Positions 36,929 to 63,881 of a stretch of 64,000 nucleotides of DNA are shown here, one piece after another. This DNA comes from an uncultured Eubacteriales bacterium (GTDB lineage Bacteria > Bacillota > Clostridia > Oscillospirales > UBA644), in contig CAKSTW010000003.1 of the NCBI GenBank assembly GCA_934501435.1, forward strand, positions 67,842 through 131,841, in the 5' to 3' direction. The notes under the pieces are model-generated. The model saw only the letters and a program-made list of their open reading frames with translations, ran no database searches and was not told where the DNA came from. Position numbers and translations under genes: made by a program. Positions within the stretch are counted from its first letter, which is position 1, and each line of letters starts with the position of its first letter.

Positions 36929-36947
36929 GATTCGATCTCCGTTAATT

Positions 36948-38315: not shown

Positions 38316-38339
38316 ATATGCACCGAAAGCGGTACATAT
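38316..38339. promoter_or_regulatory. operator-like inverted repeat (island motif, site 1)
   Basis: ATATGCACC-GAAAGC-GGTACATAT, about 60-85 nt upstream of the CPR/MPP/RtcB operon start. It overlaps a putative -35. Confidence 0.6.
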
Positions 38340-38390
38340 CGACCGATAGAATAAAGACATCGGGCAAGAGATACAAAGTTTGTATTCGAC

Positions 38391-42314: not shown

Positions 42315-42409
42315 TTCAAATTTCTCCCTTTGTTTTTACTCCATTATACCACGCTTAAACAGCCTACCGTCCGCGGCGATTTCTAAGGTGATTTAACTGT
42401 CAAAAGGTA

Positions 42410-43351
42410 TCACGCATCGGTCGTTTTACCGCAAAGTTTTTCTTTGATCCGGGTTTTATACCCGATAAACTCCGAATTATTCGGGTCAACAGAAAGCACA
42501 TAGTTTATCCGTCCCAGCAGTTTCCTCAAATAAACAGTCTCGTTATCCGTATTTCCTTTCTTTTCAAGATGACTCCTGATTCCGTATTTTTTACAATAGT
42601 ACATCTCCTGTCGGACATTCTTTCTGTACGATGCTGCCACATTCGGTTTTTGATTGACAACGATCCCGGTAACAGACATTTTTTGTCCATTACATACACA
42701 AACCGTCTTTTTTTCATTTAAGAAAAAACCGAGTTTTCCGAGTTCGCCTGATACAAAACATTTCAAAACCGACGGTTCAAAGACCCCCGAAAAAGTCATA
42801 TCGTCACAGTAGCGTGTATAGGTTATTCCTCTTTCACGGCACCAACTGCCGACAGTATTATCAAAATCCCGCATAATGATATTGGATATTGCCGGAGATG
42901 ACGGTGCGCCCTGCGGCAGACAGCCTTTATAACAGCACAAGACAGACAGCAGAACCCCGTTCGACTCGGAAAAAATTCTGTCATTGAAAACAATATTTCT
43001 GACAAGCGCATAGGTAATTTTATCAAAGAAATGCCGGATATCAAGTTTCAGCAACATCGCGTGTCCTGCATGCGGCTTTGCATTTTTCAAAGGGCTGCCG
43101 CCGAATCGGTATGCGGTTGCATACGGAGAAAGTTCGATTCGGTTCAGAATGACATTCGTAATTTTCTTTTGCACCGCTTTAAGCTCTTCATCCGGAACAA
43201 ACAGTTTGCGGTATTCGCCGTTTCCTTTGGGAACAGACGTTTCATGATAATGCGAATTGATTGTATTGCTGAGAGTGTACAACATTTTTGCCGAGCATCC
43301 GAGATCGGTTTCGAGGGAGGAATGCTCCCGATAGATAATCATATTTGGCAA
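42410..43351 (-). CDS. retron-type reverse transcriptase
   Basis: 313 aa. LKNAKPHAGH (NAxxH); LLKLDIRHFFDKI (motif A); LPQGAPSSPAISN (motif B); YCDDMTFSG (motif C); MSVTGIVVNQKPNV (retron VTG motif). SD GAGGGAGG. A structured non-coding region lies immediately upstream. Confidence 0.9.
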   Translation of the reverse strand: MPNMIIYREHSSLETDLGCSAKMLYTLSNTINSHYHETSVPKGNGEYRKLFVPDEELKAVQKKITNVILNRIELSPYATAYRFGGSPLKNAKPHAGHAMLLKLDIRHFFDKITYALVRNIVFNDRIFSESNGVLLSVLCCYKGCLPQGAPSSPAISNIIMRDFDNTVGSWCRERGITYTRYCDDMTFSGVFEPSVLKCFVSGELGKLGFFLNEKKTVCVCNGQKMSVTGIVVNQKPNVAASYRKNVRQEMYYCKKYGIRSHLEKKGNTDNETVYLRKLLGRINYVLSVDPNNSEFIGYKTRIKEKLCGKTTDA

Positions 43352-45465: not shown

Positions 45466-46335
45466 TTAATCTTTCAGGTCCGGGCATAAGCATTTTTTCT
45501 CATTTCGTTCCGTACTGCTTTTGCAGATAAACACCTGCCGGTTTAACGCCAGCGTTTTTTCGATGTAGTCACTCAACTCTACTGTCTCATCGGTTCGTTC
45601 ACACAAATCAAAAACGACGAGCGGCCAATTTATATGATTGAAATCTCTGATTTCTTCGACCTTTTGCCAAAACTGATTGATACTGAGATAGCACAGATAT
45701 TCAAACAAGACCGAATCGGATTCGCTTAAAACATCTCGACTGCACCTGCCGGCAGAGGAGACAATAACAGTTTCACCGTTTTCTTTGATACGAATTTGAT
45801 TGGTGTCCGTTGCTCCCGAGTTTCGGTTGTTCCATTCCTTAATATGATTATTCAGACACGATCGAAATGATCTTGTATTGCCGATACCGTCTGTCTGTTT
45901 CGAAAAATCGGTTTTGGAATAATACTTTTCAGCGTCCTTATAGTTCCTGAATCTATCTGAAAACCTGTCGCTGCTGCTGAAGGAAAAACATGACAGATGC
46001 TCCTCTTCCGAGCTTTGGTGAATCATACGGTAAAAGTCTTCGCGCAATTCGGCATCCTCGGTTTTTACAGTGTAAGCGAACCCCTGTTTATTCTTCAATC
46101 CCGACGCAGTTATGAAGTATTTCTTTCCCGATATTTCAATCTCGACTTTAATGTTCGTTCTTTCCGCCGCTTTAACTTTTTCTCCGACAAGAGATCTGCT
46201 TTTCAGAACAACACCTAACGCTTTTTTGATAACTTCTGCGTTTTCCGGGGACAGAACGACAAGTTGAGAGTCAAAAGAAGATTCATAACGGACTGTGTTT
46301 TCAAAATCTTCAATTTGTATTCTCCTGACGATCAA
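45466..46335 (-). CDS. hypothetical protein, possibly a degenerate ABC/SMC-like ATPase fold
   Basis: Track ORF 45466..46422. The best initiation signal is SD AAAGGAGAA 8 nt before TTG 46335, giving (M)IVRRIQIEDFENT. ATG 46404 is an alternative. The N-terminus resembles the M.I..I.I.NF start of RecF/SMC-type ATPases but has no GK[ST] P-loop. The C-terminal PLVVFDLCE...NRQVFICKS resembles a decayed Walker B/D-loop. Confidence 0.55.
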   Translation of the reverse strand: MIVRRIQIEDFENTVRYESSFDSQLVVLSPENAEVIKKALGVVLKSRSLVGEKVKAAERTNIKVEIEISGKKYFITASGLKNKQGFAYTVKTEDAELREDFYRMIHQSSEEEHLSCFSFSSSDRFSDRFRNYKDAEKYYSKTDFSKQTDGIGNTRSFRSCLNNHIKEWNNRNSGATDTNQIRIKENGETVIVSSAGRCSRDVLSESDSVLFEYLCYLSINQFWQKVEEIRDFNHINWPLVVFDLCERTDETVELSDYIEKTLALNRQVFICKSSTERNEKKCLCPDLKD

Positions 46336-46406
46336 CGAGTCGCTTCTCCTTTCACTTTGATCTGTTTTTACTTTGTCTCTTGCCGATAACCCAATCCGGC
46401 GCATGA

Positions 46407-48431
46407 TTATTCCGCAACACAAAATCCTATCGGATTTTTGCGTTTTTTTGCGGCGGCGGGAGGGTCTTCAATGTCTTCGGCGCAAATTGTGATAATGTCA
46501 TCTTTTGCAATATGATCAAAATCCATTTGAAGCAATCTGGTTGCCTGCGCCATTTTTGCTTTTTCAATCACATTACGGGCATAACGTCCGTTGCCGAACT
46601 CGCTTTCTTCTTTGGCAAAATCAAACAAACCGGTCAGTTTTTCACGGGCGTCTTCCGTTAATTTCATGCCTTTTTTCTTTGCAATCAGATTTGCGATCTT
46701 GCAGAGTTCATCAGTATTATAATCGGCAAAAGGAACATGAAAAGCGATTCTGGATCTTAAACCGGGATTCTTTTGAAGGAACTTTTCCATTTTATCGGGA
46801 TAGCCTGCAAAGATTACGACAACATCGTCCCTATGATTTTCCATTTCCTGAACGATCGTATTGATTGCCTCGTCTCCATAGGAACCGTCCCTGTCATCAA
46901 CGAGAGAATATGCTTCATCTATGAAAAGCACGCTGCCTTGAGCTTCGCGGAATTTCTTTTGAATCGTGGGAGCAGTCCATCCCACAAACTTGCCGACAAG
47001 ATCGCCGCGCCCGACCTCGATAAGTTTTCCTTTGGAAAGCAAATCGTTTTCCTTCATGATTCGGGAAAAGAGTCTGGCAACAGTTGTTTTTGCAGTACCG
47101 GGATTCCCGCTGAAGACCATATGCATGGCAGGTCTGTCTCTCATCATAGCCTTGTCTGCAAAGAGTTTCTGCGCCTTGTAATAATTCAACGCCTGAATTA
47201 TTACTTTTTTAGCCTCATCAACTCCGATCATTTCCATCAGTTCATCGTAAGCGGATCCCTTCGGAGCCGCCTTTACAACTTCGCGCTTTGCAGTCATAAT
47301 GTCTTTATACTGGGGGAAAACACCGGTTTTGAGTTTATTATTGAACCATTCGTCAAATATCTCGTGAAGATCCGGAGCCAAATACCCTTTCTCATTTTCA
47401 AGCGCTGAAAACAATTTCTTATCAGGTCTGATTCCATTGTCTTTTGCGAGCATTTTCAGAAACCGTTCCGCACGCTCCCCTGAAACAAAGTCTTCTTTCA
47501 ATTCAATGAAACTGATATTTCCGAGCTTCTCGCAGAACATTTCTTTTGACTTTGTACATTCGCGAGGAAGACAGAACACCGTAAGTACCAGGTTGCGGTA
47601 TTTTCTCATTATTTCACAAAGGGTTTCGATTGTATCCCTGCCGCAAGACGCGTGTTCGTTTTCTCTGTCATCGTTCGCAAGATATCTGACGATGACCGCT
47701 CCGCCTATACTGCTTTTGTAAAGGCAGTCATAAGCATCGGAAGAAAAATCATCGCCGGGCTTAAAATCAAGGAAGCAGTATCTTTTGCTGCGCAGCCTTC
47801 CGTTTAAATAAAGAGACTGAAGAAGAAGCCTATACATACTCTTGCGTGTTTCGCGATCATCGGTTTGCACAAAATAGTGCACGGGATGCCCAAAGGCACG
47901 GCGCATACTTTTTCCCGCAAATATCCGATCGAGTTCGGGAATGACAGAGTCTCTCGCAAGAAAACGGTCGGCTTCTTTATAGATTTCATCTCTTTTCGAC
48001 TCATCCAGAAGGTTTTCGCCGTATTCAACATTTCTTTCGTTTCTTCCGGTAAGCTTATCTAAACCGAAAAGTTCAAGGACCTCATCATCGTCTTCGATAT
48101 AATCGTTTTTGTCTGCACAAAAGAGCATATTCCGCGTGGCGCTCAAAGTAGTCTCTTCAATATATATGTCTTTTAAACTGATTTCAATCGCAGCCAAAAA
48201 CGATGATATCTGTTTATCAAGATTGGCAGGCTCACGGCAAATAACTCCAATGGTTGCAGTGTCTTCAGATACGCTAATAATATAGAAGAAATTTCTTTTT
48301 TTCTGCTTTTGGTTAAACGCATTTCCTTTCATGGCAATCTTGCGGACGTTTTCACGCATTATATGTCTGTTATTATATCTTTCCGACCAATCCTCATCAG
48401 TTATGATACCGTTGGCTTTGAAAAACTGCAT
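46407..48431 (-). CDS. SpoVK/CbbX-type AAA+ ATPase with a ~400-aa unknown N-terminal region
   Basis: Walker A FSGNPGTAKTTVARL, Walker B VLFIDEAYSL, VVIFAGY (sensor 1 region), NPGLRSRIAFHVPFADY. SD GGAGG. Confidence 0.85.
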   Translation of the reverse strand: MQFFKANGIITDEDWSERYNNRHIMRENVRKIAMKGNAFNQKQKKRNFFYIISVSEDTATIGVICREPANLDKQISSFLAAIEISLKDIYIEETTLSATRNMLFCADKNDYIEDDDEVLELFGLDKLTGRNERNVEYGENLLDESKRDEIYKEADRFLARDSVIPELDRIFAGKSMRRAFGHPVHYFVQTDDRETRKSMYRLLLQSLYLNGRLRSKRYCFLDFKPGDDFSSDAYDCLYKSSIGGAVIVRYLANDDRENEHASCGRDTIETLCEIMRKYRNLVLTVFCLPRECTKSKEMFCEKLGNISFIELKEDFVSGERAERFLKMLAKDNGIRPDKKLFSALENEKGYLAPDLHEIFDEWFNNKLKTGVFPQYKDIMTAKREVVKAAPKGSAYDELMEMIGVDEAKKVIIQALNYYKAQKLFADKAMMRDRPAMHMVFSGNPGTAKTTVARLFSRIMKENDLLSKGKLIEVGRGDLVGKFVGWTAPTIQKKFREAQGSVLFIDEAYSLVDDRDGSYGDEAINTIVQEMENHRDDVVVIFAGYPDKMEKFLQKNPGLRSRIAFHVPFADYNTDELCKIANLIAKKKGMKLTEDAREKLTGLFDFAKEESEFGNGRYARNVIEKAKMAQATRLLQMDFDHIAKDDIITICAEDIEDPPAAAKKRKNPIGFCVAE

Positions 48432-48477
48432 ATTGATACCTCCGTACTCTTTTCTTTACGGTTATACTATAACGCAA

Positions 48478-48503
48478 GTAAAGCACCGTTTTTGGTGCTT
48501 TAC
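48478..48503. promoter_or_regulatory. operator-like inverted repeat (island motif, site 2)
   Basis: GTAAAGCACC-GTTTTT-GGTGCTTTAC with perfect 10-bp arms, 47-72 nt upstream of the AAA+ ATG. Confidence 0.6.
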
Positions 48504-49464: not shown

Positions 49465-49968
49465 TCACATATCAATATCAATGACTGCCGTATGATTGAT
49501 TAAGTCGAGCGCGAGCTGCGCATTGGAAAGTTCTTCCGTTACGGCGTCAAGGTCGTTCCTGACGGTGACAAGGTCGTAATTTATATACTTATAGTCGATG
49601 ATATTCGTTCTCTCATAGCTTTCATATCGAGACTTGGGGAGAGTATCTGCCATTTCTTTAAGTTTTGCTTTCTTCCTTGACAACTGAGGAATATAAATCA
49701 ACATCTCATCAATCGTCATATTAAAATCGGGAATAACGGTAGTTGTGTTGAAAGTGTTGATCGCATGTTTAATCTTTCTGATTTTCCTCTCAAGAGCAGA
49801 AAGCCGGTCTTTGGTAGTTTCATAGTTGTACTCGGGACGGACAGACTCGACGTCTTCTCCTATGCTTGCCAGAAATGTTTTGGAGTTTCCTTCCTGCATT
49901 GCAATTCTTTCATAGTCCTGCTGAAGTTTGGAAAGCGCTTTTGCCGCCTGTGCAGATGTGTAGTTCAT
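49465..49968 (-). CDS. hypothetical coiled-coil protein (167 aa)
   Basis: Track ORF 49465..50037, trimmed to ATG 49968 (MNYTSAQAAKALSKLQ) after SD AAGGAGAG. Its promoter region carries two copies of the island inverted repeat. Confidence 0.65.
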   Translation of the reverse strand: MNYTSAQAAKALSKLQQDYERIAMQEGNSKTFLASIGEDVESVRPEYNYETTKDRLSALERKIRKIKHAINTFNTTTVIPDFNMTIDEMLIYIPQLSRKKAKLKEMADTLPKSRYESYERTNIIDYKYINYDLVTVRNDLDAVTEELSNAQLALDLINHTAVIDIDM

Positions 49969-50015
49969 AATCAAATCTCTCCTTCTTTTTATGTCTATGA
50001 ATATTATAACCCTCA

Positions 50016-50039
50016 CAATGCACCTAATATGGTGCATTG
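50016..50039. promoter_or_regulatory. operator-like inverted repeat (island motif, site 3)
   Basis: CAATGCACC-TAATAT-GGTGCATTG with perfect 9-bp arms. It lies just upstream of a TATAAT on the minus strand. Confidence 0.6.
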
Positions 50040-50086
50040 CGCAGTCCCCGTTACAGGTTCTTTTTTCGGTATCATTATATCAGCGA

Positions 50087-50110
50087 CAATGCACCGAAAA
50101 CGGTGCGTTG
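50087..50110. promoter_or_regulatory. operator-like inverted repeat (island motif, site 4)
   Basis: CAATGCACC-GAAAAC-GGTGCGTTG, with one mismatch between the arms. Confidence 0.55.
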
Positions 50111-50203: not shown

Positions 50204-51205
50204 CTATTTGACATTTTTATTCTCATTATATTTCTTCAGTCCGCTATCCAAGATTTCTTTCATTCGATTTCTTAAGGATTCCGGTGAAACTATCTCCACA
50301 TGGTTTATGTACTGCATTGCCCAAAGTTCCATGGCGGTTGGGCTTGCTTTAACACCGACTCTGACTTTTCCTTCTTCGTTTGATTTCATGATGCGAATGT
50401 CCTTTCCGAACCAGTCGACAATTTGATCAACTATCCCCTCGTCGGCAATAAAATCAATGTATTCGGGTTTATCAGAATACATATACGGCATCGTTGAAGA
50501 TAATTCTTTATAATTGATGCCGTTTTCATAACCCGGCACGTTTTTAAGCGGAGTTGCTTTTCGGGCTGTGATTGTCATATTGCTGATACGGTCAAGTCGG
50601 TGAAATACAATATTGTGCCAGTATTCACTGTATGCCATCAAATAATAGCGTTGATTGTGCAAAATCATCAAATACGGGCTGACATATTGCTGCGAAGTCT
50701 TGTGCAGTTTTTTATCAACTCCGTATTTATTGTAATCGTAATGTATCTGTTTCCCTTCTTCTATGGCGGCATCAATTAACTCAATATTATAGAACAACGC
50801 CTGATTGTCTGTTTTGCTCCAGTCGTTCACCGAGTGGATATGTTTAACGCTTGACCTGAAATACTTGTTCGACAGAGCGCAAATACGATCAATCAGATCC
50901 TGCGAGTGGCGGGCTGTAATGTGCTTACTGCTCAACACGCCGTCAATCAGCATATGGAGTTCCGAATCTTCAAAATCGCGGCTGTCCAAATAGCTGCCGG
51001 ATCTTCGGGATTCGATTTCTATCCCGGATTCTTTTAACAAAGAAATATTACGGCTGATTGCTTTTCTTTCAATGACTATCCCGTATTCATTTTCCAGCTT
51101 TCGTGCAATATCCTCCTGCGTCATGGGATGGTCATAGTCACTGTTTTCTTTGAGTATTTGCCAAATCCTTATCAATGCAAGTTTTTTCGGTTCAAAGCTC
51201 TCCAT
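50204..51205 (-). CDS. WYL-domain transcriptional regulator (wHTH-WYL-WCX architecture; BrxR/CapW-like)
   Basis: N-terminal wHTH (LIRIWQILKENSDYDHPMTQEDIARKL). WYL core (SPYLMILHNQRYYLMAYSEYWHNIVFHRLDRISNMTI). C-terminal extension. SD AAGGAG. Confidence 0.8.
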   Translation of the reverse strand: MESFEPKKLALIRIWQILKENSDYDHPMTQEDIARKLENEYGIVIERKAISRNISLLKESGIEIESRRSGSYLDSRDFEDSELHMLIDGVLSSKHITARHSQDLIDRICALSNKYFRSSVKHIHSVNDWSKTDNQALFYNIELIDAAIEEGKQIHYDYNKYGVDKKLHKTSQQYVSPYLMILHNQRYYLMAYSEYWHNIVFHRLDRISNMTITARKATPLKNVPGYENGINYKELSSTMPYMYSDKPEYIDFIADEGIVDQIVDWFGKDIRIMKSNEEGKVRVGVKASPTAMELWAMQYINHVEIVSPESLRNRMKEILDSGLKKYNENKNVK

Positions 51206-51802
51206 ATTATAGCTCCTTGTCGTTTTCCGTATGTTAAAAACATAATCTTAAACAGATTATACCGTACCATAAAAGTCACGCCCGTTTTTGGTACATTTCA
51301 TTCTTTTATTTGCCCGCAATAATATTTATATCAACAAACACGCGGAAGGTCACCTTGATTACCGGGTCCGCATTTTATTTCTTTCCGGTCTTTTTAGGTT
51401 TTCCATTGTTCCGTAACGGTTGCCGAAGCTTTAACTTTGGCAACAAACCGATTACAATCACCTTTTACTTTATTATACTCATTTTTGAAATACGAGTCAA
51501 GACCTTAAAATTCAGGCTTTATCAAATTCACCGTAATACGACGCAGAGGAAATATCTTTTATCTTCCGGTTTCAGGATATCCGCAACTGTAAAAAGCCCT
51601 TTGCGAAAAGGATTTCTCCTCTCGCAAAGGGAAAGCTGACGAGTAAAATTTTACAGTACGGTTTTTCACAATAAAATGATACCGGAAGCAATGTACCGGT
51701 TTTGATGCCCCGCCGTTCAATTTCAATCGGTTCAAAGTTTTCTCTGCCATACCTGTCAAACATACAACGCCGCTCACATTTGTGTCTCTTCAGATCCTGA
51801 CT

Positions 51803-53785
51803 TTATTCTTCTTCGGCTACCGCGCTCTCGGATAGCATCTTTGCGAAATGTCCTTCGGTAATAATCTTCGTTCCATAGTTCAATGCAGTTGAAAGTTTTT
51901 TTGTTCCCGGCGCTTCACCGACGATCAGATAGGTTGTATTTTTCGTCACGGAATCATTTACATTTGCTCCGAGGAGTTTCAAAAGTTCGGTGATATCCTT
52001 GCGGTTCATACCGTTCACGGTACCGGTCACCACAACATTGGCATTCACAAACGGATTACCCTCTTCCCCGATTTTAACGGGCTGGTCAATAAAGGTAATT
52101 TCTTTCAAAACAGGTTTCCACAGTTTTGCTTCCGTCTCATCAGCGTACCATTTATAAATATTTCTGCTTAATGTTTGGGAAACGCCGGCAATATGAAAGA
52201 AACAAAACTCCTCTTTGATTGCTTTCTCGAAATCGTCCCACGATCCGAGAAAATATTCGTCAATCGCTCTGGCATTATTGGGTCCCATAAGCGGAATGCC
52301 GACTGCAACCAGAAACTGCGCCAGATGGCATCGTCTGCTGTTCTCAACGGCTGATATTAGTTTATCATAAGTCCCATAGCCAAATCCGGGCGTTGTCAAA
52401 ATCCTCTCGCGGTACTTTTCCAGATCATACAGATCCGCAAAGGTTTTTACAAATCCGTATGCCATCAACTTTTCGAGAACAGAGGCATTGAAGCCTTCCA
52501 TATTCATTGCATTTTTATCGCAGAATCTTGCGATTTTCTGAGCGTTTCTGGCAATACATTCTTCATTGGGACAATATAGGTTTTTTGTACCGCCGGAAGC
52601 GATCTTAAGTTCAAGTTCACTTCCGCAGCAGGGGCATCTGTCGGGAAGTTTATATGTCCCGCTCCGGGTAACGTTTTCCGAAATCTGAGGGACAATCATA
52701 TTGGCTTTATATACTTTAATTGTGTCGCCGATTCCGAATTCATACTTCTCAAAATTACTGAGAGAATGAATATCTGCCCGCTTAACATAAGAACCGTCAA
52801 TCAACACCGGATCGAATTCGGCGCAAAGAGTTATCATTCCGTTTCTTGTTGTAGCAAGTTCCACTCCACGGAAGACCGTCTCGTATTCGTCATCCTCCCA
52901 CTTAAGGGCAAGCATTCTGTTCTCATGGTGCGCAGTGGCTCCGAGGCTTTTGCCGAATGAAAGATCATTATATTCAAAAATGAGCCCGTCAACAGGATAA
53001 TCGTATTTTTCGGGATTAAAACTTTCAATGGTTTTTTTAAGCGCCGTCTCTCCGGAAAACGCATGAATAAGTGTATGTTCAACTACATCAAAGCCGTTTG
53101 CCGAGAGAAAGTCCAACTGTTCCTCTTTCGTAGTTCCGCCATCACCGGGAAGGATCAGTTCAAATGCGTAGAAATCCATATGAGAAAGGTTTCCCTTGTC
53201 GGGGGTCAGGCTTCTCACAAGCCCGGCGGCAACGTTTCGAGGGTGACTCGGTGAATTATCTCTGTTGAGCAGTTGATAATCTGCCCATGAAACAACTCCT
53301 TCACCCCGAACCTCAAAACTCTTTCTGCAATTCACTTTTTTCGGTATGTTACGGAGATATCTGACCGTATTGGTAATATCCTCGCCCACAAGCCCCTCTT
53401 CGCCTCTGGTAACGGCTTGCTTAAAGTTCCCGTCCTCATATCTCAGTACAAGAGTAAGTCCGTCCATTTTCCAGGATAACATAACATCGTTTCCGGCAGC
53501 AAAGTGAGCGACATCATCAACTGACTTTGTTTTCTTAGCCGAAAGCATAGGTCTGGAATGCTCAACTTTTTTCAGTTCGGTCTTATTACAGCCGCCGACC
53601 CGCTTTGTCGGAGAGTTTGCAAATACAATACCGGTGACGGCTTCCAATGTTTTCAGTTCATCCATTAAGGCATCGTACTCCCTGTCCGTCATGACAGGAT
53701 TGTCTTCGCCGTAATATGCTTTATCGGCGTCCTTAATAATTGAAATCAGTTCTTTAATTCTTGAAACATTATTTTTTTCCTCCAT
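51803..53785 (-). CDS. ligA: NAD-dependent DNA ligase (LigA family), divergent island-borne copy
   Basis: Domain Ia YYGEDNPVMTDREYDALMDEL; adenylation lysine SWKMDGLT; TRGEEGLVGEDIT; Zn finger CPCCGSEL...YCPNEEC; HhH region; C-terminal BRCT (VVVTGTVNGMNRKDITELL...YLIVGEAPGTKK). Confidence 0.85.
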   Translation of the reverse strand: MEEKNNVSRIKELISIIKDADKAYYGEDNPVMTDREYDALMDELKTLEAVTGIVFANSPTKRVGGCNKTELKKVEHSRPMLSAKKTKSVDDVAHFAAGNDVMLSWKMDGLTLVLRYEDGNFKQAVTRGEEGLVGEDITNTVRYLRNIPKKVNCRKSFEVRGEGVVSWADYQLLNRDNSPSHPRNVAAGLVRSLTPDKGNLSHMDFYAFELILPGDGGTTKEEQLDFLSANGFDVVEHTLIHAFSGETALKKTIESFNPEKYDYPVDGLIFEYNDLSFGKSLGATAHHENRMLALKWEDDEYETVFRGVELATTRNGMITLCAEFDPVLIDGSYVKRADIHSLSNFEKYEFGIGDTIKVYKANMIVPQISENVTRSGTYKLPDRCPCCGSELELKIASGGTKNLYCPNEECIARNAQKIARFCDKNAMNMEGFNASVLEKLMAYGFVKTFADLYDLEKYRERILTTPGFGYGTYDKLISAVENSRRCHLAQFLVAVGIPLMGPNNARAIDEYFLGSWDDFEKAIKEEFCFFHIAGVSQTLSRNIYKWYADETEAKLWKPVLKEITFIDQPVKIGEEGNPFVNANVVVTGTVNGMNRKDITELLKLLGANVNDSVTKNTTYLIVGEAPGTKKLSTALNYGTKIITEGHFAKMLSESAVAEEE

Positions 53786-53858
53786 ATCCGCACCTCTTCT
53801 TTTCTTTATACACGAATTATAGCAACAGTAATGTACCGATTATATCCCGCTGAAAATT

Positions 53859-54476
53859 TCATGCTTCCTGTTGATGCTTTTGCATTTCGTTTTCTTTGAT
53901 AAGTTTCATATACCAACCGTCAACGCAAAGTCTGAGGATCGAACATTCATAATTTATTGCGGAATATGTGCATGAGTCTTCCAAACAAGCGGTTTTAATG
54001 GCCAATGAAGAAGTAAGCAATTTGAATTTCTCGTCATTGATATAGAATACTTCTCCCGGAGTCAAATCGCCTTTAATATCGTCAATAACAATAACCGGCC
54101 GTATTCTGCCGCCCGTATCTCCGTCATAAGACCGGTTTGCGTTGTTGTTTGAAACGCAATAATGCTCGTATAACCACCAGTTATCTTTTGTGTCCGGAAG
54201 ATTGTTGCATAACAAATCAAAATCATGCCTTGTTAAAAGTGAAGCTCCGACGGTTTTAACGGTTCCTTCTTTTTTCCCTTTTCCGACATAACGGAGAGTT
54301 GCCTCACAACGTTCGGTAGTAGTAAGGAGCCTGGCTTTTTCTCCTTTTTCTTTATTATTCTTTTTATATACTGCAGATCTGCAGCCATTGAGGGTATTGA
54401 TGGTTTTTTCAATTTCCTCTTCGGACATAGAGGACAAAAGTTCTTTCAGTTCATTTGTAAAATCATTCTTATTCAT
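53859..54476 (-). CDS. hypothetical protein (205 aa)
   Basis: Track ORF 53859..54494, trimmed to ATG 54476 (MNKNDFTNELKEL), 6 nt after SD AAGGAG, which overlaps the upstream stop codon. No motif recognised. Confidence 0.6.
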   Translation of the reverse strand: MNKNDFTNELKELLSSMSEEEIEKTINTLNGCRSAVYKKNNKEKGEKARLLTTTERCEATLRYVGKGKKEGTVKTVGASLLTRHDFDLLCNNLPDTKDNWWLYEHYCVSNNNANRSYDGDTGGRIRPVIVIDDIKGDLTPGEVFYINDEKFKLLTSSLAIKTACLEDSCTYSAINYECSILRLCVDGWYMKLIKENEMQKHQQEA

Positions 54477-54486
54477 TGTGAACTCC

Positions 54487-56013
54487 TTACTCATCGACTT
54501 TTATTCTGCCGATCTTTCCCCACGGCGGATTTCTGTCTTCGTTATTGATTAACCAAAGGACAGGGATACCTCCCGCCTCACTTTCGGCAGGAAACTCGTC
54601 GTAGCCATCTGTAATTATGATGATATATGCCGGCGGCTCATCTGTCATGTTTTCGTTCATATAGCGGAAAATAGCAGAAAAGTCATTTCCACCGCCGCCG
54701 ACCGGCTTAATTTCCATGACATCCTCAACTGACGAGAACGGTATTGGCACCGTAACGTAACTTTCCGTAAAACTTAACCAGCCCTCCAGTTTCCCGTTAA
54801 ATTGATCAATTGCAGCACATATCTCGCTGTAAGCAGCACGGATAGCATTGTCCCCGATAGATCCTGAGGTATCTATCAGAAACCATATATTTTTGACACC
54901 GGACTCTTTTTCATTAAAGTCGGGTAAAAGAAACATACTGTCCTGAAAGCGCCTGTCCGGTGGATTAAAAGAATAATCGTTTATTTCTTCCTGAACAAAA
55001 TCCTGTAAAACTTCTCTCCAGTCGGTTTGCGGTTCTGTTAATTCCATGAGAATTCTTTGAGCCATCAAAGGTGGTCCGCCATAACCTTCATGACTATCTT
55101 TGATACTGATTATTCTGTTTGCGATTGTAGTAGCTTCAATCATTCTCTGAAGCCAGATATCTTTTGAATATCCATCATCTGTTTCGCTCTTATTATATGC
55201 GCTGCAATGGTTTGATTCATATTCTTCTCCATATTCATTACAGCTTTGCCCCGGTGACCCCGTATCACCCATACCCCAGTAGGTGTGATCATCAAAGCCG
55301 CCGTCAAAACGCGCGGGACCGGTGCCGCCTTCACCGCTGCCGCCTTCATCACTGTCGCCATCACCACTGCCGCCTTCATCATTGCCGCCTTCATCACTGT
55401 CGCCATCACCACTGCCGCCTTCATCACTGTCTCCTTCACCACTGCCGCCTTCATCACTGTCGCCTTCATCACTGTCTCCTTCACCACCGCCGCCTTCATC
55501 ACTGCCGCCTTCATCATTGCCGCTGTTCATGGGATTATTTTTCTTTTTTTCAGTCTCATTACAACTATGAACTAGTTTGTATACTTCTTCTGCCGAATAC
55601 TCGTAACCTTCCTTTCCGTCAGGAGCAATATGCATGCTCTCACCGTAATTTTTTAAAGTGATTTTCGAGAGATCCATATCAAAGGAATACAGAATATTGG
55701 AATTAACCACTATGTCACAAGCTGTATTAAAATCATCGAAGTCATAAGAATCCGATTTTCTGTTGCAATGGTTCAGCGCGGCATGGAGTACTTCATGCAT
55801 AAGAACAAATTCAAGTTCTTCATCCGATAGGGAATCTATAAAATCCGGACAGAAAACGATCCGGCTCCCGTCTGTGTAGGCAGTCTCGCACATAGGGTCA
55901 AGTGAGAATTGCATATGAAGAAGAAGTACCGCATAGAACGGCTGCTTTCTCATCAAAGAAAGCCGAGACGCCTGCAGTCTCTTTACAATTTTCAATACTT
56001 CTTTACTGAACAT
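54487..56013 (-). CDS. HExxH metallopeptidase-like domain + acidic repeat linker + vWA (MIDAS) domain protein (DUF2201-like)
   Basis: N-terminus [12 protein letters not shown]...[16 protein letters not shown] (HExxH). Central (G/S/D/E) repeats. C-terminal v[13 protein letters not shown] (MIDAS DxSxS) ...IIIITDGYD. Overlaps the MoxR gene by 11 nt. Confidence 0.8.
55321..55525. repeat. imperfect tandem repeat (units of about 15-30 nt) inside the vWA gene
   Basis: Repeating ACTGCCGCCTTCATCACTGTCGCCATCACC-like units encode [10 protein letters not shown]-type acidic repeats on the minus strand. Confidence 0.9.
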
Positions 56014-57121
56014 TTCCGTTTCTTAACCTTCCTCTTTTTTCGGCATATTCCAGATATTCCGGTACAGACCGAAGAAACTTCTCGTAATCCTTTTCAAAAA
56101 TTTTATAGTTTTGAATCAAAAGTTCGCCAAAATCCGCAGGAAGCCGTTTTGCATAAGAAATTGAATTACCGATGGCTACTGAATCATATCTATGTTCACT
56201 TGCATAAGCCGTCATGGAGGATACGAGCGCATACTTTGCGTCTGCTCCTTTCGGAACATCAATTGTCGTTCCGGAAAAAACAGCATCCATAGTCGGAAGA
56301 TCGTTATAAACCTTACACCACGCTCTGAATTCAACAGCCGCCCCAGAACCGATCAGACCGGCAATCATCGGATACATAGTTGCCACATTATCCTTTACGT
56401 TATTAAGCAGGCAACTTACCATTTCCCATGAACGGGGTGTAGGAAATGCCAAATCATCATTTGTTGCATCAAACCCGAAAAGTCTGTCATTCCGAAAAGA
56501 GAGGTATCCGAGGACCTGACTGTTGATACCGACTTTTACCGCCCATTTTCTCCATGATTCAAAGCTGCCTTCAATTTCAATATGAAGAAGACGATTTGCA
56601 AGAGCTTTCGGCATTTTGAAAGATACCGACTTATCCGTGACCCGGTTTCCGGCAGCAATTACAATACAGTTATCAGGCAGTTTGTGCTCACCGACGACTC
56701 TGTCCAGCGTGATCTGATAAGCAGCAGCCTGAACCGATTGAGGCGCTGCCGATATTTCATCGAGAAACAGAATGTTTATAACATTGTTCCCGGGATCCAT
56801 TTGAAAGATTTTCGGCTTCAGCCAAACAGCAAGCGTTCTATCCTCACTTGCAACAGGGATGCCCCGAAGGTCAATCGGATTAAAAAGGAGAAGCCGCACA
56901 TCAATAATTTCAACATGTTTGCCCGTATCTGCTTCGATCGTTTTTGCAATCTGACGGACAGCCTGAGATTTACCGACACCGGGAGGTCCCCAAAGCATCA
57001 CGGAGGGTAATACTTTCGGGGAAAGCCCCGCCTTTATGACGCTCAGATACGATTTGCTGAGCATATTTACGGTTTTGTCAATAGATAATATCGGAAGATT
57101 TGTGGATACTGTACTTTCCAT
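56003..57121 (-). CDS. MoxR-like AAA+ ATPase (AAA_5-type)
   Basis: Walker A LWGPPGVGKSQ, Walker B ILFLDEISAA, IVIAAGN (sensor 1), PKALANRLLHIEI. Confidence 0.85.
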   Translation of the reverse strand: MESTVSTNLPILSIDKTVNMLSKSYLSVIKAGLSPKVLPSVMLWGPPGVGKSQAVRQIAKTIEADTGKHVEIIDVRLLLFNPIDLRGIPVASEDRTLAVWLKPKIFQMDPGNNVINILFLDEISAAPQSVQAAAYQITLDRVVGEHKLPDNCIVIAAGNRVTDKSVSFKMPKALANRLLHIEIEGSFESWRKWAVKVGINSQVLGYLSFRNDRLFGFDATNDDLAFPTPRSWEMVSCLLNNVKDNVATMYPMIAGLIGSGAAVEFRAWCKVYNDLPTMDAVFSGTTIDVPKGADAKYALVSSMTAYASEHRYDSVAIGNSISYAKRLPADFGELLIQNYKIFEKDYEKFLRSVPEYLEYAEKRGRLRNGNVQ

Positions 57122-60100
57122 TATGATGCCACTCCTAATTCTTCATTCAGTTCTTTCAGTTCATTTCTTAATTTGTCAATTTCGTCCGCGTAACCCTTGA
57201 TTTCTTTATTCAGTTCTTCTTCTGTAATCTTAAGTTTTGTTTCAAGACTCAGAAGAACATCTTCGTACTTTGCTTTCTGTTCATTAAGACTTTCAAGAAA
57301 ATTATTCAGCCTTGCAGTAATACCGGACTCGGATTCGATCTCAAGGTAGTAAGTATTATTTTTGATAAGGTGTACGTATGGAATCGGCTTTCTTGCCACA
57401 GAAATATCTTCGCCGGAGCCCTGTGCGTCCTTTCTTCTTTCCGGCCTTCTCGGAACCATGTATGCCGGAACAACAACCTTGAATCCCTGAAAAGTCAAAA
57501 CTTCAACAGGTTCAGGATTATTACTGTGAGACTGAACCGCTCTGTAAATTGCTTCACGGATCGCCTTCTGGTCTTCGTACTTCATTGATTTGTAATCAAT
57601 CTTTTCTTTTTGGTACGCATCAATGTCCATTTGACATTTGGCAATTCTCTCCTTCTGTTTCTCAATTTTGGTCGGCAGTTCTCTGACAATCTGTTCCTTC
57701 TTCCTGTGATTATCCATATAATCTTTCTGAAGGATCCTGTACTTATCCAGTTCGTTGCACACTTCAACTCTGCGTTTGATTTTCGGATTACCGACCGCAA
57801 GGGCTTTCACTTCAGCATAATTCAGAACCGTGTCGTCAATATCGGTTCCGTCTCGCATAGTTGCCTCTCCTGCCATAATCTGACTGATAAATCTCTGTTT
57901 TGTTTCAAGAAGCTGCCAGGAATATGCATCAAAACTTGCTTTGGTAATATATCTGAAGATTTGTACCTTCTTATTATCATTTCCCCGGCGAAGAATCCTG
58001 CCTTCCCTCTGGACCATATCAGAAGGTCTCCACGGCACATCGAGGTGATGAATAGCCGAGAGACGCTTCTGAACATTCATACCATGTCCCATCTTTGCAG
58101 TGGAACCAACGAGTACGGCAATTTCACCCGCACACATTGCCTTGAAAAGATCCTGCCGCTGAATGTCGGTATCTGCATCGTGAATGAATGCAATTTCCTT
58201 TTCGGGCATTCCCATGGCAATGAGCAGAGTTTTCAGTTCATCATAAAGATTAAATCCTTCCTTGGGCGTAGAAATATCACAAAACACAAGCTGTGTTCCT
58301 TTGGTATCTCTGGTGTTTTGATAGACCTCGTAAACATTTTCAGCGCAGCGAATAACTTTAGAATTGAGATCCAGACCGAAAGCTGTATCAATAAGGCGCA
58401 TATCAAGCGCGGCTTTTCTCCCGTCGGAAGTTACTTTCAGCATATTGTCTTCTTTGATGGTTACGCGTTTCTGCCTGATATCATCGGCACGATTGCCGAT
58501 CTCCCGCAGATAATCCCTGAAGTCGTCGGACCCTTCCCGCAACGAATCTTTGTATCCCTCCAGTTCGGGAATTCCGGCTGTTTTATCAACCTTATGAAAA
58601 TCCGCAACGGAAGCAAGCGTCGCCGTCAACTCCGGAATGTTGCAAAATCTCGAAAAACGCGTAACGAGGTGATAACTGTTTGTATCAACGTCAATCTCAA
58701 AATCTGTCGTCTTTTCGGCATACATTCCTGCCCATGCATCAAAATTCTGGATTTCCTGAAATTCAAGTTCGCCTTCCTGAAGATACTTCTGTATGACAAA
58801 GATATCGGAAAGTGAGTTTGTTACCGGAGTACCGGTTGCAAATACAATTCGGCCTCCGTCATTCATCCGTTGAATGCAGTGAACCTTATCCATCATACCG
58901 TTACCTTTTGCAGCTCCGCCGCTTCCGAGGCCTCTTACTTTTGAAATTCTGCTTTCCAGATCAATGTTCTTATAGTTATGTGCCTCGTCAAGAAACAAAG
59001 TATTGATTCCCAACTCATCAAAAGGCATGGTTTTAGGTGTTTTTCTGTATGAAAGCTGAAGTTTGTTCAGCGACTCCCGAATATGCCTGCGTTTTTTTTC
59101 AATCGTTGTTTTCGAGTAAAAGTTCTTTGTTGCCTTTTCCAGTAATTCAAGGCGTTCTTTATACAACATGATATAATATCTGTCCGAAAGCGAAAGCATA
59201 TCGAAACAGCTGTAAGTCATCAGGATCGCGTCAAAATCCTCATTCTTAATTTGATTGAGCGTCTCGCTGCGCTTATGGGGTCCGAAATTTTTGATGCTGA
59301 CGGTAAAAATATTTGCATCAGGGTACATGGTTTTAAAAATACTTTCCCACTGACCTATAAGGTTATTCGGCACAACATAGAGGTTCTTCTTTGACTTGCC
59401 GAGCCTTCTGAGTTCCATACCTGCCGCAATCATAATATAGGTCTTCCCTGAGCCGACGTCATGGGCAAGAAGCGTGTTCGGAGAAAAGAGTATCCTTGCT
59501 ACTGCATTCTTCTGATAATCATAAAGTTTGACTTTATCGCTAAGCCCCGGAAGTTCAAGAAAAGAACCGTCATAAGTTCTCTTTTTAATGTTTCCGTATT
59601 TTCTGCAATAAGCAGCCTGCAATCTTTTCTTTCGGGCTTCATCTTCCCAAACCCAATTTCGGAAGATATCGATCATATATTTCTGCTTTTCAAGAAGTTT
59701 TACTGTTTCATCCTGATTTATGACTCTTACTTTACAATTGGGATCGCTCGGATCCTTGGAATCAGACACAGAAAGAGTCTTCATATTAAGAGTATTTTCC
59801 AAAACATAAAGCATGTCCATTCGATCCGTTCCGTAAATTTTATAATTGACCTCTTCAAACATGCCGTGAAAATGACTTGTCCGGAAACGCGTCTTTTCGG
59901 GGATTTCCCAATATCCCGTATACTCATCATGGCGAACGGCATAGTCGTTCTCCTGACTGATGCAGTAATATTCTTTGGCTTCCTTGCTGTTAAGATTCCC
60001 TCCGAAAGCCATGTATGCAATAAAGTCATCAATAACATCAGTCGGAACCCACGGAGAACCAAGCGTTACATAGATATCTTCTGTTTCGATGTCAGGTTCC

Positions 60101-61068
60101 AGTATCCCTTCAAGCGCCGTAACATTATTCTGAAAATATCCGTTATAATTTTCATTGGCCTCTTTAGCCACTTTATATTTGTGCATAAGGTTACCGGAAA
60201 GATACTCGTCTGCGGTTTCCCATCCCTTATAAAAAACCTCATTCCAATGAAGAGGATTCTGATAAATAGACCCTCTCAGGGTTTCAATGACCGTTTTCAT
60301 ATCTTCGCCTGTTACTGATGCGATAAATTCAATGTCAACAAGTCCGAGCATATCCAGAGACATCATAAGGGCGTCGGACATGGAATCACAGCGTTCGGAG
60401 GCTCTGGCATCATCGTCATAGGCATTAACGAAGTCTATGGGAAGGTCCATTCGCGTGACCTCATTTACATGCTCAATGCGTTTCTTTTCACGACGCGCTG
60501 CCGCACGTCTGGCTGCAGCCTGTCTGCGCTTATTCCATGCTTCGATTTCTTTCTTCCTTTTTTCCGCTTCCTCTTCAAGTTTCCGTCGTGTTTCTTTTTC
60601 ACGAGCCTCAAGACCGGCGACCTTCAGAGATTCAATGGCGATATCAAGATCTTCAAAGGAAAGGACCTCTCCGACATCTTTCAGTGCATTAAAGAAGTTG
60701 TCCATGCGTTCATTGCGGATTTTCGCGGCGGAAACAAGGTCAATGTACTGATACTTTGAATAATCCGTTGAAACTTTTTCATTGCTCATATGATGGAATG
60801 CGCGAACTTTATAATAATAGGATCTCCCGTCCGGAACATAAAATTCTATTACGGGCGAAGCACTGCTCCCCACTTTGACGTACTTCCCGCGCGGCGTCTC
60901 GCTCTGATACACTTCATAGATTTCAGCGCCTACTATGGCTTTTATTCTTACAAGAACCTGCGTTCCGCTTACAAAGAACGAAAACTCCGGAACCACAACT
61001 TTAAAAGTGTCCTCTGCGTATTCCGGCTTTTCCCCCTCAATGATATTAGTAACATCTGCCTTTTTCAT
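57121..61068 (-). CDS. SNF2-family helicase (1315 aa) with a long N-terminal extension
   Basis: Motif I LLAHDVGSGKTY, motif II LFLDEAHNYKN, motif III FATGTPVTNS, motifs V-VI LVGSTAKMGHGMNVQ and QREGRILRRGN. The pre-helicase segment (EYLSGNLMHKYKVAKEA...VTLGSPWVPTDVIDDFI...YDGSFLELPGL) resembles, from memory, the helicase half of large plasmid/phage methylase-helicase proteins. I see no NPPY/DPPY methyltransferase motif. Confidence 0.85.
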   Translation of the reverse strand: MKKADVTNIIEGEKPEYAEDTFKVVVPEFSFFVSGTQVLVRIKAIVGAEIYEVYQSETPRGKYVKVGSSASPVIEFYVPDGRSYYYKVRAFHHMSNEKVSTDYSKYQYIDLVSAAKIRNERMDNFFNALKDVGEVLSFEDLDIAIESLKVAGLEAREKETRRKLEEEAEKRKKEIEAWNKRRQAAARRAAARREKKRIEHVNEVTRMDLPIDFVNAYDDDARASERCDSMSDALMMSLDMLGLVDIEFIASVTGEDMKTVIETLRGSIYQNPLHWNEVFYKGWETADEYLSGNLMHKYKVAKEANENYNGYFQNNVTALEGILEPDIETEDIYVTLGSPWVPTDVIDDFIAYMAFGGNLNSKEAKEYYCISQENDYAVRHDEYTGYWEIPEKTRFRTSHFHGMFEEVNYKIYGTDRMDMLYVLENTLNMKTLSVSDSKDPSDPNCKVRVINQDETVKLLEKQKYMIDIFRNWVWEDEARKKRLQAAYCRKYGNIKKRTYDGSFLELPGLSDKVKLYDYQKNAVARILFSPNTLLAHDVGSGKTYIMIAAGMELRRLGKSKKNLYVVPNNLIGQWESIFKTMYPDANIFTVSIKNFGPHKRSETLNQIKNEDFDAILMTYSCFDMLSLSDRYYIMLYKERLELLEKATKNFYSKTTIEKKRRHIRESLNKLQLSYRKTPKTMPFDELGINTLFLDEAHNYKNIDLESRISKVRGLGSGGAAKGNGMMDKVHCIQRMNDGGRIVFATGTPVTNSLSDIFVIQKYLQEGELEFQEIQNFDAWAGMYAEKTTDFEIDVDTNSYHLVTRFSRFCNIPELTATLASVADFHKVDKTAGIPELEGYKDSLREGSDDFRDYLREIGNRADDIRQKRVTIKEDNMLKVTSDGRKAALDMRLIDTAFGLDLNSKVIRCAENVYEVYQNTRDTKGTQLVFCDISTPKEGFNLYDELKTLLIAMGMPEKEIAFIHDADTDIQRQDLFKAMCAGEIAVLVGSTAKMGHGMNVQKRLSAIHHLDVPWRPSDMVQREGRILRRGNDNKKVQIFRYITKASFDAYSWQLLETKQRFISQIMAGEATMRDGTDIDDTVLNYAEVKALAVGNPKIKRRVEVCNELDKYRILQKDYMDNHRKKEQIVRELPTKIEKQKERIAKCQMDIDAYQKEKIDYKSMKYEDQKAIREAIYRAVQSHSNNPEPVEVLTFQGFKVVVPAYMVPRRPERRKDAQGSGEDISVARKPIPYVHLIKNNTYYLEIESESGITARLNNFLESLNEQKAKYEDVLLSLETKLKITEEELNKEIKGYADEIDKLRNELKELNEELGVAS

Positions 61069-61113
61069 TCAAGCACCTCTGATTTGTTCTTATACCTGTA
61101 TTATACAAAATGT

Positions 61114-61135
61114 AATGTCCCGTTTTCGGTGCAAC
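61114..61135. promoter_or_regulatory. operator-like inverted repeat (island motif, site 5, degenerate)
   Basis: AATGTCCC-GTTTTC-GGTGCAAC, 46-67 nt upstream of the SNF2 ATG. It lies next to a TGTATAAT -10 on the minus strand. Confidence 0.5.
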
Positions 61136-61244: not shown

Positions 61245-61279
61245 AAAAAAAAAGACCCACTACCTTTCGATAGTGAGTC
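61245..61279 (-). terminator. intrinsic terminator downstream of lysS
   Basis: Minus strand GACUCACUA-UCGAAAGG-UAGUGGGUC followed by U9. Confidence 0.8.
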
Positions 61280-61402
61280 TCGTGTGAAAATACGGTAACT
61301 TATAAAATTCTATGTGATTTTACAAAAAATCACAATTCTGTTTACTCCGAATCGGAGATTTTCGGATACCGAATCGGCTTTTTCGCCTTTTTACAGCTCG
61401 GA

Positions 61403-63881
<2,479 letters not shown>

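Follow-up and report, generated by a model that had tools for sequence, protein, structure and literature searches.

What do the genes for a SNF2 translocase, a MoxR-like AAA+ ATPase, a zincin peptidase joined to a von Willebrand factor A (vWA) domain, a small protein of no recognisable family and an NAD-dependent DNA ligase (LigA) do side by side on a clostridial chromosome? They form a string in a 64,000-nt stretch of contig CAKSTW010000003.1 of an uncultured Eubacteriales bacterium, referred to here as the window, and the original prediction saw in them a candidate conflict or repair system. The unit kept by evolution is the SNF2-MoxR-vWA/zincin triad, which its sequence marks out as a widespread, undescribed accessory module of Clostridia; no description of the triad was found in the literature on DUF2201 and on MoxR proteins with vWA and SNF2 partners. 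The module is tentatively read as an inducible conflict (anti-invader) module of gut and rumen Clostridia, derived from mobile genetic elements. This reading is plausible, albeit far from assured.

The gene string and its boundaries

The five open reading frames (ORFs) are co-oriented on the minus strand and lie where they had been predicted:

57121..61068, minus strand: SNF2 translocase, 1315 aa (Pfam, PHROG, tblastn)
56003..57121, minus strand: MoxR-like AAA+ ATPase, 372 aa (AAA_3, phrog_1297)
54487..56013, minus strand: zincin (DUF2201_N), acidic low-complexity linker and C-terminal vWA domain with metal ion-dependent adhesion site (MIDAS), 508 aa (Pfam, PHROG, AlphaFold)
53859..54476, minus strand: orphan 205-aa protein (ORF 53859-54494, with ATG 54476 as conserved start)
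51803..53785, minus strand: NAD-dependent DNA ligase LigA, 660 aa (Pfam, TIGR00575, phrog_3869)

ORF coordinates and junction sequences agree with the tight spacing that had been claimed. The SNF2 and AAA+ genes overlap by 1 nt (TAATG) and the AAA+ and vWA genes by 11 nt (ATGTTCAGTAA). The vWA stop codon and the orphan start codon (TAA-GGAGTTCACA-ATG) are separated by a gap of 10 nt that contains a ribosome-binding site (GGAG), and the ligase gene follows the orphan after 73 nt. Two strong terminators bracket the string:

61252..61281, minus strand: intrinsic terminator 3' of lysS, with a T-run behind a stem of 13 pairs; bounds the unit on its upstream side
51597..51631, minus strand: strong intrinsic terminator 3' of ligA, a 14-pair stem followed by a T-run; downstream boundary

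The string can therefore be regarded as a single delimited unit, in which ligA has an additional, internal promoter. It is conserved, and from its overlaps and terminators it is predicted to be co-transcribed.

A three-gene core

Relatives were sought with a profile of the vWA protein, using one genome per species. A total of 440 relatives were detected and the best 80 were analysed as loci, every one of which belongs to a metagenome-assembled genome or an isolate of gut or rumen Clostridia. Genes were counted across these loci by tblastn and ORF clustering, with flanks of 10 kb:

vWA: 80/80 loci
MoxR: 78/80 loci
SNF2: 77/80 loci
WYL regulator (within 10 kb): 30/80 loci
ligA: 23/80 loci
AAA/AAA_lid_6: 21/80 loci
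318-aa partner of AAA/AAA_lid_6: 18/80 loci
SUFU-like: 14/80 loci
FtsH-like AAA-M41, soluble: 10/80 loci
DUF2779: 8/80 loci
205-aa gene: 6/80 loci

The order of the triad is always SNF2-MoxR-vWA on a single strand, in about 77 of the 80 species-level genomes, and these three genes form the conserved core. The string of five is nonetheless more than a chance neighbourhood, as had been supposed: the same five genes are found again on six or more separate contigs whose flanks are unrelated (L004, L007/L008, L098, L099, L100 and L101), with SNF2 identities of 83-90% in L004 and L007. Since the flanks differ in related lineages, the genomic location of the string varies.

On a neighbour-joining tree built from MoxR and SNF2, the ligA-bearing loci fall into one 19-leaf clade; a single contig appears to depart from this, and it is truncated at the start of ligA. 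The pairwise identities of LigA correlate with those of SNF2 (r=0.99). ligA is always found directly 3' of the vWA or the 205-aa gene, while the genes downstream of it vary. Such a pattern suggests that ligA joined the triad once, in one clade, and then co-diversified with it. The 205-aa gene is the youngest addition, limited to the closest subclade. As both are clade-specific, the evolutionary unit is the three-gene core and not the five-gene string; the latter, proposed originally as the unit, is real and recurrent.

The proteins of the triad

The SNF2 protein contains a complete helicase core (SNF2-rel_dom, ResIII and Helicase_C in Pfam) behind a long N-terminal extension, in line with the earlier description. 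The extension consists of a beta-rich segment and a coil rich in Lys, Arg and Glu (residues 140-205). Behind it come the DarB-type helicase module (aa ~242-1200) and, at the C-terminus, a coiled region. The likeness to the helicase half of DarB, noted originally, is borne out: residues 226-1311 match the PHROG 'DarB-like antirestriction' phrog_10089 (E=8e-229), and residues 242-1200 share 35-38% identity with the helicase half of large methylase-helicase proteins of plasmids and phages (tblastn; 2079 plasmid and 135 phage records). Only close relatives share the first 240 residues. No methyltransferase match was obtained in Pfam or NCBIfam, no (D/N/S)PP(Y/F/W/H) motif is present in the protein, as the earlier reading had it, and no methyltransferase gene lies in the string. 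A sequence search of the PDB returned nothing for the SNF2 protein or for the WYL protein discussed below, and only marginal matches for MoxR and the zincin.

The AAA+ protein is MoxR-like. It passes the MoxR-family profile AAA_3 (36 bits against a cut-off of 27), but reaches only 16 bits with the bpMoxR profile, for which the cut-off is also 27, and only E=0.0095 with the MoxR structure 2r44. It matches the phage family phrog_1297 (E=5e-92). Its Walker A (GPPGVGKS) and Walker B (LFLDE) motifs are conserved, and the catalytic motifs of SNF2, MoxR and LigA are likewise conserved across homologues.

The third protein carries an N-terminal DUF2201_N metallopeptidase domain (E=3e-34) in addition to the DUF2201 vWA-like domain, and matches phrog_1314 (E=1e-70). 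Among 28 homologues, the HExxH histidines, a third His and the MIDAS residues D381, S383, S385, T468 and D469 are invariant; for E74, the Glu of HExxH, conservation reaches at least 90%. The AlphaFold model shows a true vWA fold, with matches that include NorD of the NorQD MoxR complex (9qhe). The vWA domain dominates this fold search, by which the zincin subfamily is not resolved. Weak matches of the zincin domain to SprT-like and M48 families are seen at the sequence level, the SprT-like one being below threshold. The prediction of an HExxH peptidase-like domain on a vWA protein beside a MoxR-type AAA+ is thereby confirmed. Its description as the classic pair of conflict systems needs to be replaced, since the PHROG matches and a published account of such pairs in jumbo phages (PMC7824862) identify it as a phage-type DUF2201 pair.

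The linker between zincin and vWA domain is acidic, rich in Gly, Ser, Asp and Glu, and encoded by a 15-nt tandem repeat. The repeat spans 55278-55553, where 13 overlapping register copies are detected. Linker length differs among homologues (proteins of 401-570 aa), and the 97%-identical protein of P0022 is shorter by 15 aa.

The ligase and the orphan protein

LigA has the full domain set (Ia, nucleotidyltransferase domain with KxDG, OB, Cys4 zinc finger, HhH and BRCT) and aligns over its full length to 2owo, so that the description as a divergent full-length ligase holds. Its divergence is visible in the scores: 121 bits for the Pfam adenylation domain, 454.2 bits for TIGR00575 (cut-off 444, or precisely 444.45) and 232 bits to E. 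coli LigA. K106, D108, G109, E162, K295 and the Cys residues are conserved in 23/23 triad-linked copies. The motif IV Lys (K290 in E. coli) is Glu in the same 23/23 copies, and Thr or Ile stands at this position in the LigAs of Clostridium phage c-st and of a faecal phage contig. Because the motif IV Lys is also absent from phage LigAs, and given the match to phrog_3869 (E=6e-153; ~36% identity to phage LigAs), the protein can be classed as a phage-type ligase. An inactive ligase, at one point deduced from the Lys-to-Glu exchange, was dropped for the same reason. Indirect evidence suggests an accessory paralogue rather than the sole replicative ligase.

Could a housekeeping ligA simply have come to lie beside unrelated genes? 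The score above the LigA equivalog cut-off, the promoter of its own and the 73 nt that separate it from the upstream gene would be expected in that case. The cut-off is barely passed, however, and the protein groups with phage LigAs. Moreover, the gene is present in a minority of the triad loci, is monophyletic there, tracks SNF2 in its divergence, keeps its place behind the vWA or 205-aa gene amid varying downstream neighbours, and stands under the operator of the island described below. Chance proximity is thus scarcely credible.

The 205-aa protein has no match in Pfam, PHROGs, PADLOC or NCBIfam, in keeping with its earlier listing as a protein of no recognisable family. The family is tiny (21 clusters among 5.8 billion sequences). 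Its predicted structure comprises a helical hairpin, a beta-rich domain and a C-terminal helix (predicted local distance difference test score 86.8), and the model found no fold relative in the PDB or BFVD. On one contig (P0019; GCA_016648615.1) a SNF2 gene (1312 aa) is directly followed by the 205-aa gene, and MoxR, vWA and ligA are missing. This variant suggests that the orphan may partner the helicase. An AAA_lid_6 ATPase and SLFN/nSTAND-like NTPases lie near these two genes in P0019.

A shared operator-promoter and its candidate regulator

The operator-bearing promoter that had been predicted before ligA was found and is conserved in other genomes. In the window it reads GGTACATTAC, 6 nt, TATAAT, and the same element stands before SNF2 and recurs after ligA. 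Its full form, seen in the ligA upstream regions of other genomes, is a palindrome, aTGCACC-N6-GGT(A/G)CAT, followed after 9-10 nt by a -10 box. The operator thus has 7-bp arms and a 6-bp spacer, and it is located ~30-45 nt before the start codon. The sequence GGKACATTRC had been taken for a -35-like element; recognition of the upstream half-site led to the palindromic operator instead.

Operator statistics were computed on 1.31 Mb of loci against shuffles and random positions. The right half-site with the -10 box has 68 matches versus 11.7 in shuffles, and a left half-site (at least 4/6 matches) accompanies 46/68 of these, versus 12% at random positions. More than 50 operator sites are spread over loci L004-L088, in dozens of genomes. 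They precede SNF2, ligA, AAA/AAA_lid_6, FtsH-like and SUFU-like genes, several genes of no known family and, once, a WYL gene. The window holds seven sites, all at 38-61 kb; no other site with promoter geometry is found elsewhere in the 64 kb:

61100..61133, minus strand: operator-promoter before SNF2 (GCACC-N6-GGGACAT, 9 nt, TATAAT), ~30 nt 5' of the ATG
53816..53845, minus strand: operator-promoter before ligA (GGTACAT, 9 nt, TATAAT; left half-site degenerate)
51676..51697, minus strand: right half-site and -10 box after the ligA stop codon, ~45 nt before the terminator; third copy
50003..50107, minus strand: two tandem operator-promoters (ATGCACC-N6-GGTGCAT, 9 nt, TATAAT) before the 190-aa ORF 49465-50037
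48466..48499, minus strand: operator-promoter before the AAA/AAA_lid_6 gene
38319..38352, plus strand: operator-promoter (ATGCACC-N6-GGTACAT, 9 nt, TAGAAT) facing a 155-aa ORF and the DUF2779 gene

From the half-site copy after ligA a very short RNA could be made; alternatively, the copy could serve as a decoy operator. Since the operator-promoter is shared, the string and the neighbouring cassettes are predicted to form one regulon, comprising the operator-linked genes of the island. The ends of the string, which had been taken as the limits of the functional entity, are accordingly too narrow, as the operator ties the string to cassettes throughout 38-61 kb.

A palindromic operator of this kind is probably bound by a dimeric repressor or activator, for which the island itself encodes a candidate:

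50204..51205, minus strand: regulator with helix-turn-helix (HTH), WYL and WCX domains, candidate operator binder (WYL/WCX in Pfam; PADLOC WYL E=2.5e-23)

The precedent of BrxR-type WYL dimers, which occupy inverted repeats at several defence-island promoters (PMC9122601), makes this protein the obvious choice. The island resembles the BrxR/CapW-type systems of that study in having an HTH-WYL-WCX gene near defence genes and inverted repeats at several promoters. It differs in half-sites and spacing, and in that its WYL genes lack the box. Autoregulation of the WYL gene through the operator is unsupported, as the operator precedes just 1/32 WYL genes.

The island and the question of mobility

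The string is part of a region of lower GC content (0.41-0.43 at 32-60 kb, versus ~0.47 in the rest of the window). The setting is chromosomal, with greA and lysS upstream of the string. Among 148 neighbour-family representatives scanned with Pfam and PADLOC, the Pfam families comprise housekeeping families together with GmrSD_N, PDDEXK_4, AAA_21 and a DarT1-associated NADAR. PADLOC adds a retron reverse transcriptase, mad3, AriA and PDC candidates. Genes of the DUF262/GmrSD and SspE types recur near triad loci. A ClpP-like protein and a fragment resembling Pol III alpha likewise recur there, with no operator seen before either. From these neighbours the triad is judged to sit in a chromosomal, variable island of the defence type.

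Such an island may also be looked at from the side of the mobile element. The module would then belong to the cargo of an element that is or once was mobile, serving counter-defence or establishment, with the operator as the early-gene switch of the element and the island as its non-autonomous or decayed remainder. The nearest relatives of the proteins are indeed of phage or plasmid origin (phrog_10089, phrog_1297, phrog_1314 and phrog_3869, and the plasmid and phage records of the SNF2 relatives), the LigA motif IV variant is common to phage LigAs, and many promoters with one operator are typical of a mobile-element circuit. The lower GC content of the island fits as well. In one locus (L090) the triad adjoins genes typical of integrative and conjugative elements (ICEs), namely serine recombinases, FtsK and a sigma factor.

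The neighbourhoods themselves speak against this cargo explanation. The island of the window (23 kb) has no integrase, relaxase, type IV secretion system or structural gene among its Pfam-annotated ORFs, several further ORFs being without a Pfam match, and no att-like direct repeats were found around it. A prophage or ICE origin of the island was rejected for want of integrase, structural or transfer genes. In 77/80 loci no recombinase was found within 10 kb by tblastn with three large serine recombinases as queries, and mobility genes may lie farther out. No phage-structural or transfer family is present among the listed Pfam families of the 148 neighbour clusters. The original prediction had named the routine occurrence of the block in phage or conjugative modules as the finding that would speak against it; the loci do not bear this out, as the block is not routinely located in such modules and structural or transfer genes do not recur among these families.

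The viral side gives a similar picture. When the 2.9 million contigs of IMG/VR were compared, nine contigs matched. Seven of them are large (30-504 kb, six >150 kb) and carry only the MoxR-vWA pair, and the triad is confined to two short contigs, where Mob_Pre, ParB, large serine recombinases and FtsK lie beside it. In lytic phages the pair alone is routine (423 phage records, among them N4-like phages, Bacillus phage G and cyanophage S-TIM5), and it also occurs on Burkholderiales plasmids at ~30% identity, with no SNF2 adjoining. Conversely, the plasmid relatives of SNF2 are polyvalent proteins of 2000 aa, fused to a methylase and encoded next to ArdC or SSB, and MoxR-vWA is not found near them.

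In the IMG/VR contig L089 and in the genome locus L040, a mobilisable element leaves only the last 300 SNF2 codons. Here the element seems to have cut SNF2 rather than to carry the triad, and this disruption in two genomes further argues against the cargo explanation, which is rated as unlikely. The element (L040 2399-7315, L089 185-8793) encodes AAA_25, a Mob_Pre relaxase, ParB and a large serine recombinase with DUF4368, and replaces the first ~1000 SNF2 codons. The recombinases of the two copies are 73% identical. The SNF2 gene may be an integration target of this element, and insertion would inactivate the triad.

A related suggestion starts from the phage pair itself, which has been predicted to be an assembly chaperone in group 2.2 jumbo phages (PMC7824862). 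If the MoxR-vWA/zincin pair were such a virion-type assembly chaperone and maturation protease, the string would be a prophage remnant without present function. The shared architecture and the frequency of the pair in N4-like and jumbo phages lend this a certain appeal. No virion genes occur near any of the 80 loci, however, and the pair is tightly coupled to a DNA translocase. Motifs and gene order are kept across ~77 species at 45-70% identity, which indicates purifying selection and not decay. The prophage remnant is therefore very improbable.

Comparison with known systems

The expectation that no named defence system corresponds to the string is upheld. PADLOC, NCBIfam and PHROGs, applied to the five proteins, yielded no named system: PADLOC gave generic matches to helicase lobes and none for the vWA protein, and LigA obtained a BRCT-only match. 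Several known systems nevertheless share parts with the triad.

The DarB-like polyvalent proteins (P1 DarB; Iyer et al. 2017, PMC5512222) contain a helicase half like SNF2 aa ~242-1200. In contrast to them, the SNF2 protein has no adenine methylase, is a stand-alone protein of 1.1-1.3 thousand residues and differs at the N-terminus. Its gene lies on the chromosome and shows translational coupling to a MoxR-vWA pair, which is missing beside the plasmid copies. Carriage by a phage or conjugative element, as for DarB, was not seen; the triad is located in a chromosomal island beside lysS and greA. The phage pair of MoxR and metallopeptidase-vWA (DUF2201; N4-like and jumbo phages) has the same two-gene architecture and domain order, at ~30-50% identity. 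It lies among early or replication genes without an adjoining SNF2, whereas in the triad a DarB-type helicase gene precedes the pair in a chromosomal operon.

Peptidase effectors have been described in MoxR-vWA conflict systems (Kaur et al. 2020, PMC7159879), of which iSTAND variants exist (PMC12839542). These ternary systems and the triad share a common logic, a MoxR-type AAA+ with a vWA protein that bears a peptidase effector. However, the third gene is SNF2 here and not of the VMAP, iSTAND, beta-propeller or FtsH type, the N-terminal zincin peptidase is rare there, and the bpMoxR score of 16 bits remains below 27. The defence system ietHAS combines a SNF2 helicase with the IetA ATPase and the IetS protease (PMC13069673). 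The triad has the same three activities (SNF2 helicase, AAA-type ATPase and protease), from different families. The match to IetA covers only the P-loop (E=2e-4 over 28 residues), and a zincin-vWA protein takes the place of the serine protease (subtilase) of IetAS/ietHAS.

The C-terminal lobe of SNF2 has partial matches to DrmD and DrmA of DISARM (E=2e-14 or weaker; 44 bits against the NCBIfam DrmD-type cut-off of 610). DrmA, DrmB (DUF1998), DrmC, a PLD protein and a methylase are absent from the string. Finally, the ligase has its domains, KxDG, motif V Lys and Cys4 finger in common with bacterial and phage LigA (phrog_3869; Clostridium phage c-st). It differs from the bacterial enzyme in being accessory and operator-controlled, and in its motif IV Glu.

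A possible mechanism and its rival

Every recognisable part of the module appears, from its closest relatives, to be of phage or plasmid ancestry, and it can therefore be viewed as a captured mobile-element toolkit that was turned to host use. As a conflict module it might operate as follows. Upon infection or DNA damage the operator would be released. The SNF2 motor would load on DNA and translocate along it. On reaching a foreign or stalled protein bound to the DNA, the vWA/MIDAS domain would capture that protein, the MoxR ring would remodel it and the fused zincin would cleave it. Where present, LigA would reseal nicks, whereby the host DNA survives. The net outcome would be interference with the DNA of an invading phage or plasmid.

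Stated in full, the proposal is that SNF2 brings the vWA-zincin protease, driven by MoxR, to proteins that are bound or covalently attached to DNA, that LigA reseals in its clade, and that this machine is operator-wired into a mosaic island in hundreds of species. In this specific form it is speculative and rather improbable. Candidate targets may be phage terminal proteins, relaxases and trapped enzymes.

Several observations weigh against the conflict reading. The string contains no nuclease or obvious toxic effector, and the step in which the protease is the effector is conjecture. No defence hidden Markov model in PADLOC matches the vWA, MoxR or 205-aa proteins. Each part has its nearest relatives among phage and plasmid genes for offence or establishment, and the possibility of mobility genes beyond the 10 kb searched counts here as well. 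WYL genes are without an operator upstream in 31/32 cases, so that the link between the WYL protein and the operator is something we infer. In addition, the repair-like genes of the island (the ligase, with a Pol III alpha-like and an MPG-like glycosylase gene nearby) fit a damage response equally.

This last point leads to a functional rival, a damage-inducible module for repair or tolerance. The SNF2 protein, the AAA+ ATPase and a SprT/Wss1-like zincin would remove trapped or cross-linked proteins from DNA and LigA would seal it, in analogy to SPRTN/Wss1 with p97/Cdc48, controlled by a WYL regulator that senses damage in the manner of PafBC or DriD. The WYL regulators PafBC and DriD respond to single-stranded DNA and damage. 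The weak SprT-like and M48 matches of the zincin point in this direction, as does the recruitment of a ligase that then co-diversified with the triad. The operator stands directly before an FtsH-like AAA-M41 gene, and the DUF2779 Cas4-like nuclease gene lies downstream of an operator-promoter. The recurring Pol III alpha-like fragment and ClpP-like protein (no operator seen) and the MPG-like glycosylase of the island can be added to this list. On the other hand, the module is patchy and its location shifts between close relatives, its surroundings are retron, GmrSD, PARIS-like and MADS-like genes, and in the window the operator is restricted to the island. The SprT-like match is under threshold, and the parts are of phage or plasmid lineage instead of being cellular repair genes. 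A repair function is rated as unlikely, yet it is, with the cargo explanation, one of two serious rivals; the conflict module derived from mobile elements is retained as the tentative reading.

If the triad is a defence system, it would represent a nuclease-free immunity design of helicase, unfoldase and protease with an optional ligase, from abundant and poorly studied Clostridia. It would also show how offensive genes of phages and plasmids (DarB helicase, MoxR-vWA and ligase) are captured for the host. If it serves repair, it would be a bacterial counterpart to the SPRTN/p97-type removal of proteins from DNA. A DNA-bound protease machine, if true, would amount to a new bacterial mechanism of defence or of dealing with DNA-protein adducts, along with a new island-wide regulon. 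In either case one regulator and one signal should switch the whole mosaic island, for which the operator offers an experimental handle. The chromosomal triad furthermore provides a route to the function of the widespread phage DUF2201 MoxR-vWA pair.

Other genes of the island and the window

Two further features of the island are connected to the operator:

45466..48431, minus strand: SpoVK/CbbX/EccA-like AAA+ (674 aa, AAA_lid_6) with a 318-aa partner of no family; operator-linked cassette
39264-40775: DUF2779 nuclease-like (Cas4-like) gene, downstream of the operator-promoter at 38319..38352

The AAA_lid_6 gene and its 318-aa partner could form a two-gene module of their own or belong to the triad system. 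A SUFU-family gene with its own operator copy lies directly 5' of SNF2 in other loci (L004 2758-3405, L098 2856-3272, L010 401-1054, L014/L016 ~4400) and is absent from the window. SUFU-family proteins often occur as immunity proteins.

The island also contains a retron-type reverse transcriptase (PADLOC RT_Ec107-like, E=1e-125; 40966-43351, minus strand). It is followed by two possible effectors, a 183-aa fragment of the MPG-like DNA glycosylase and a PAD_porph-like protein of 265 aa. In L023 a similar reverse transcriptase adjoins the WYL gene and the triad. At the island edge (35185-38264, minus strand), an RtcB RNA ligase, a calcineurin-like phosphoesterase and a protein with a cyclic-phosphate-processing receiver domain (cREC_REC) form an RNA-repair or conflict-type cassette.

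Searches with Rfam found no RNA family at 30-64 kb, and there are no tRNA genes in the window. Farther away lie GerA-type germination genes, RNase J and a gene of the Mur ligase family; the host is a spore-forming Firmicute of the Clostridia type. A GmrSD-family (DUF262) gene resembling type IV restriction genes (12863-14644, plus strand) occupies a separate low-GC patch (0.35 at 12-14 kb). LysS (61403-63361, minus strand; 652 aa) bears a C-terminal tRNA_bind domain (Trbp111/EMAP-like), an uncommon fusion for a bacterial LysS.

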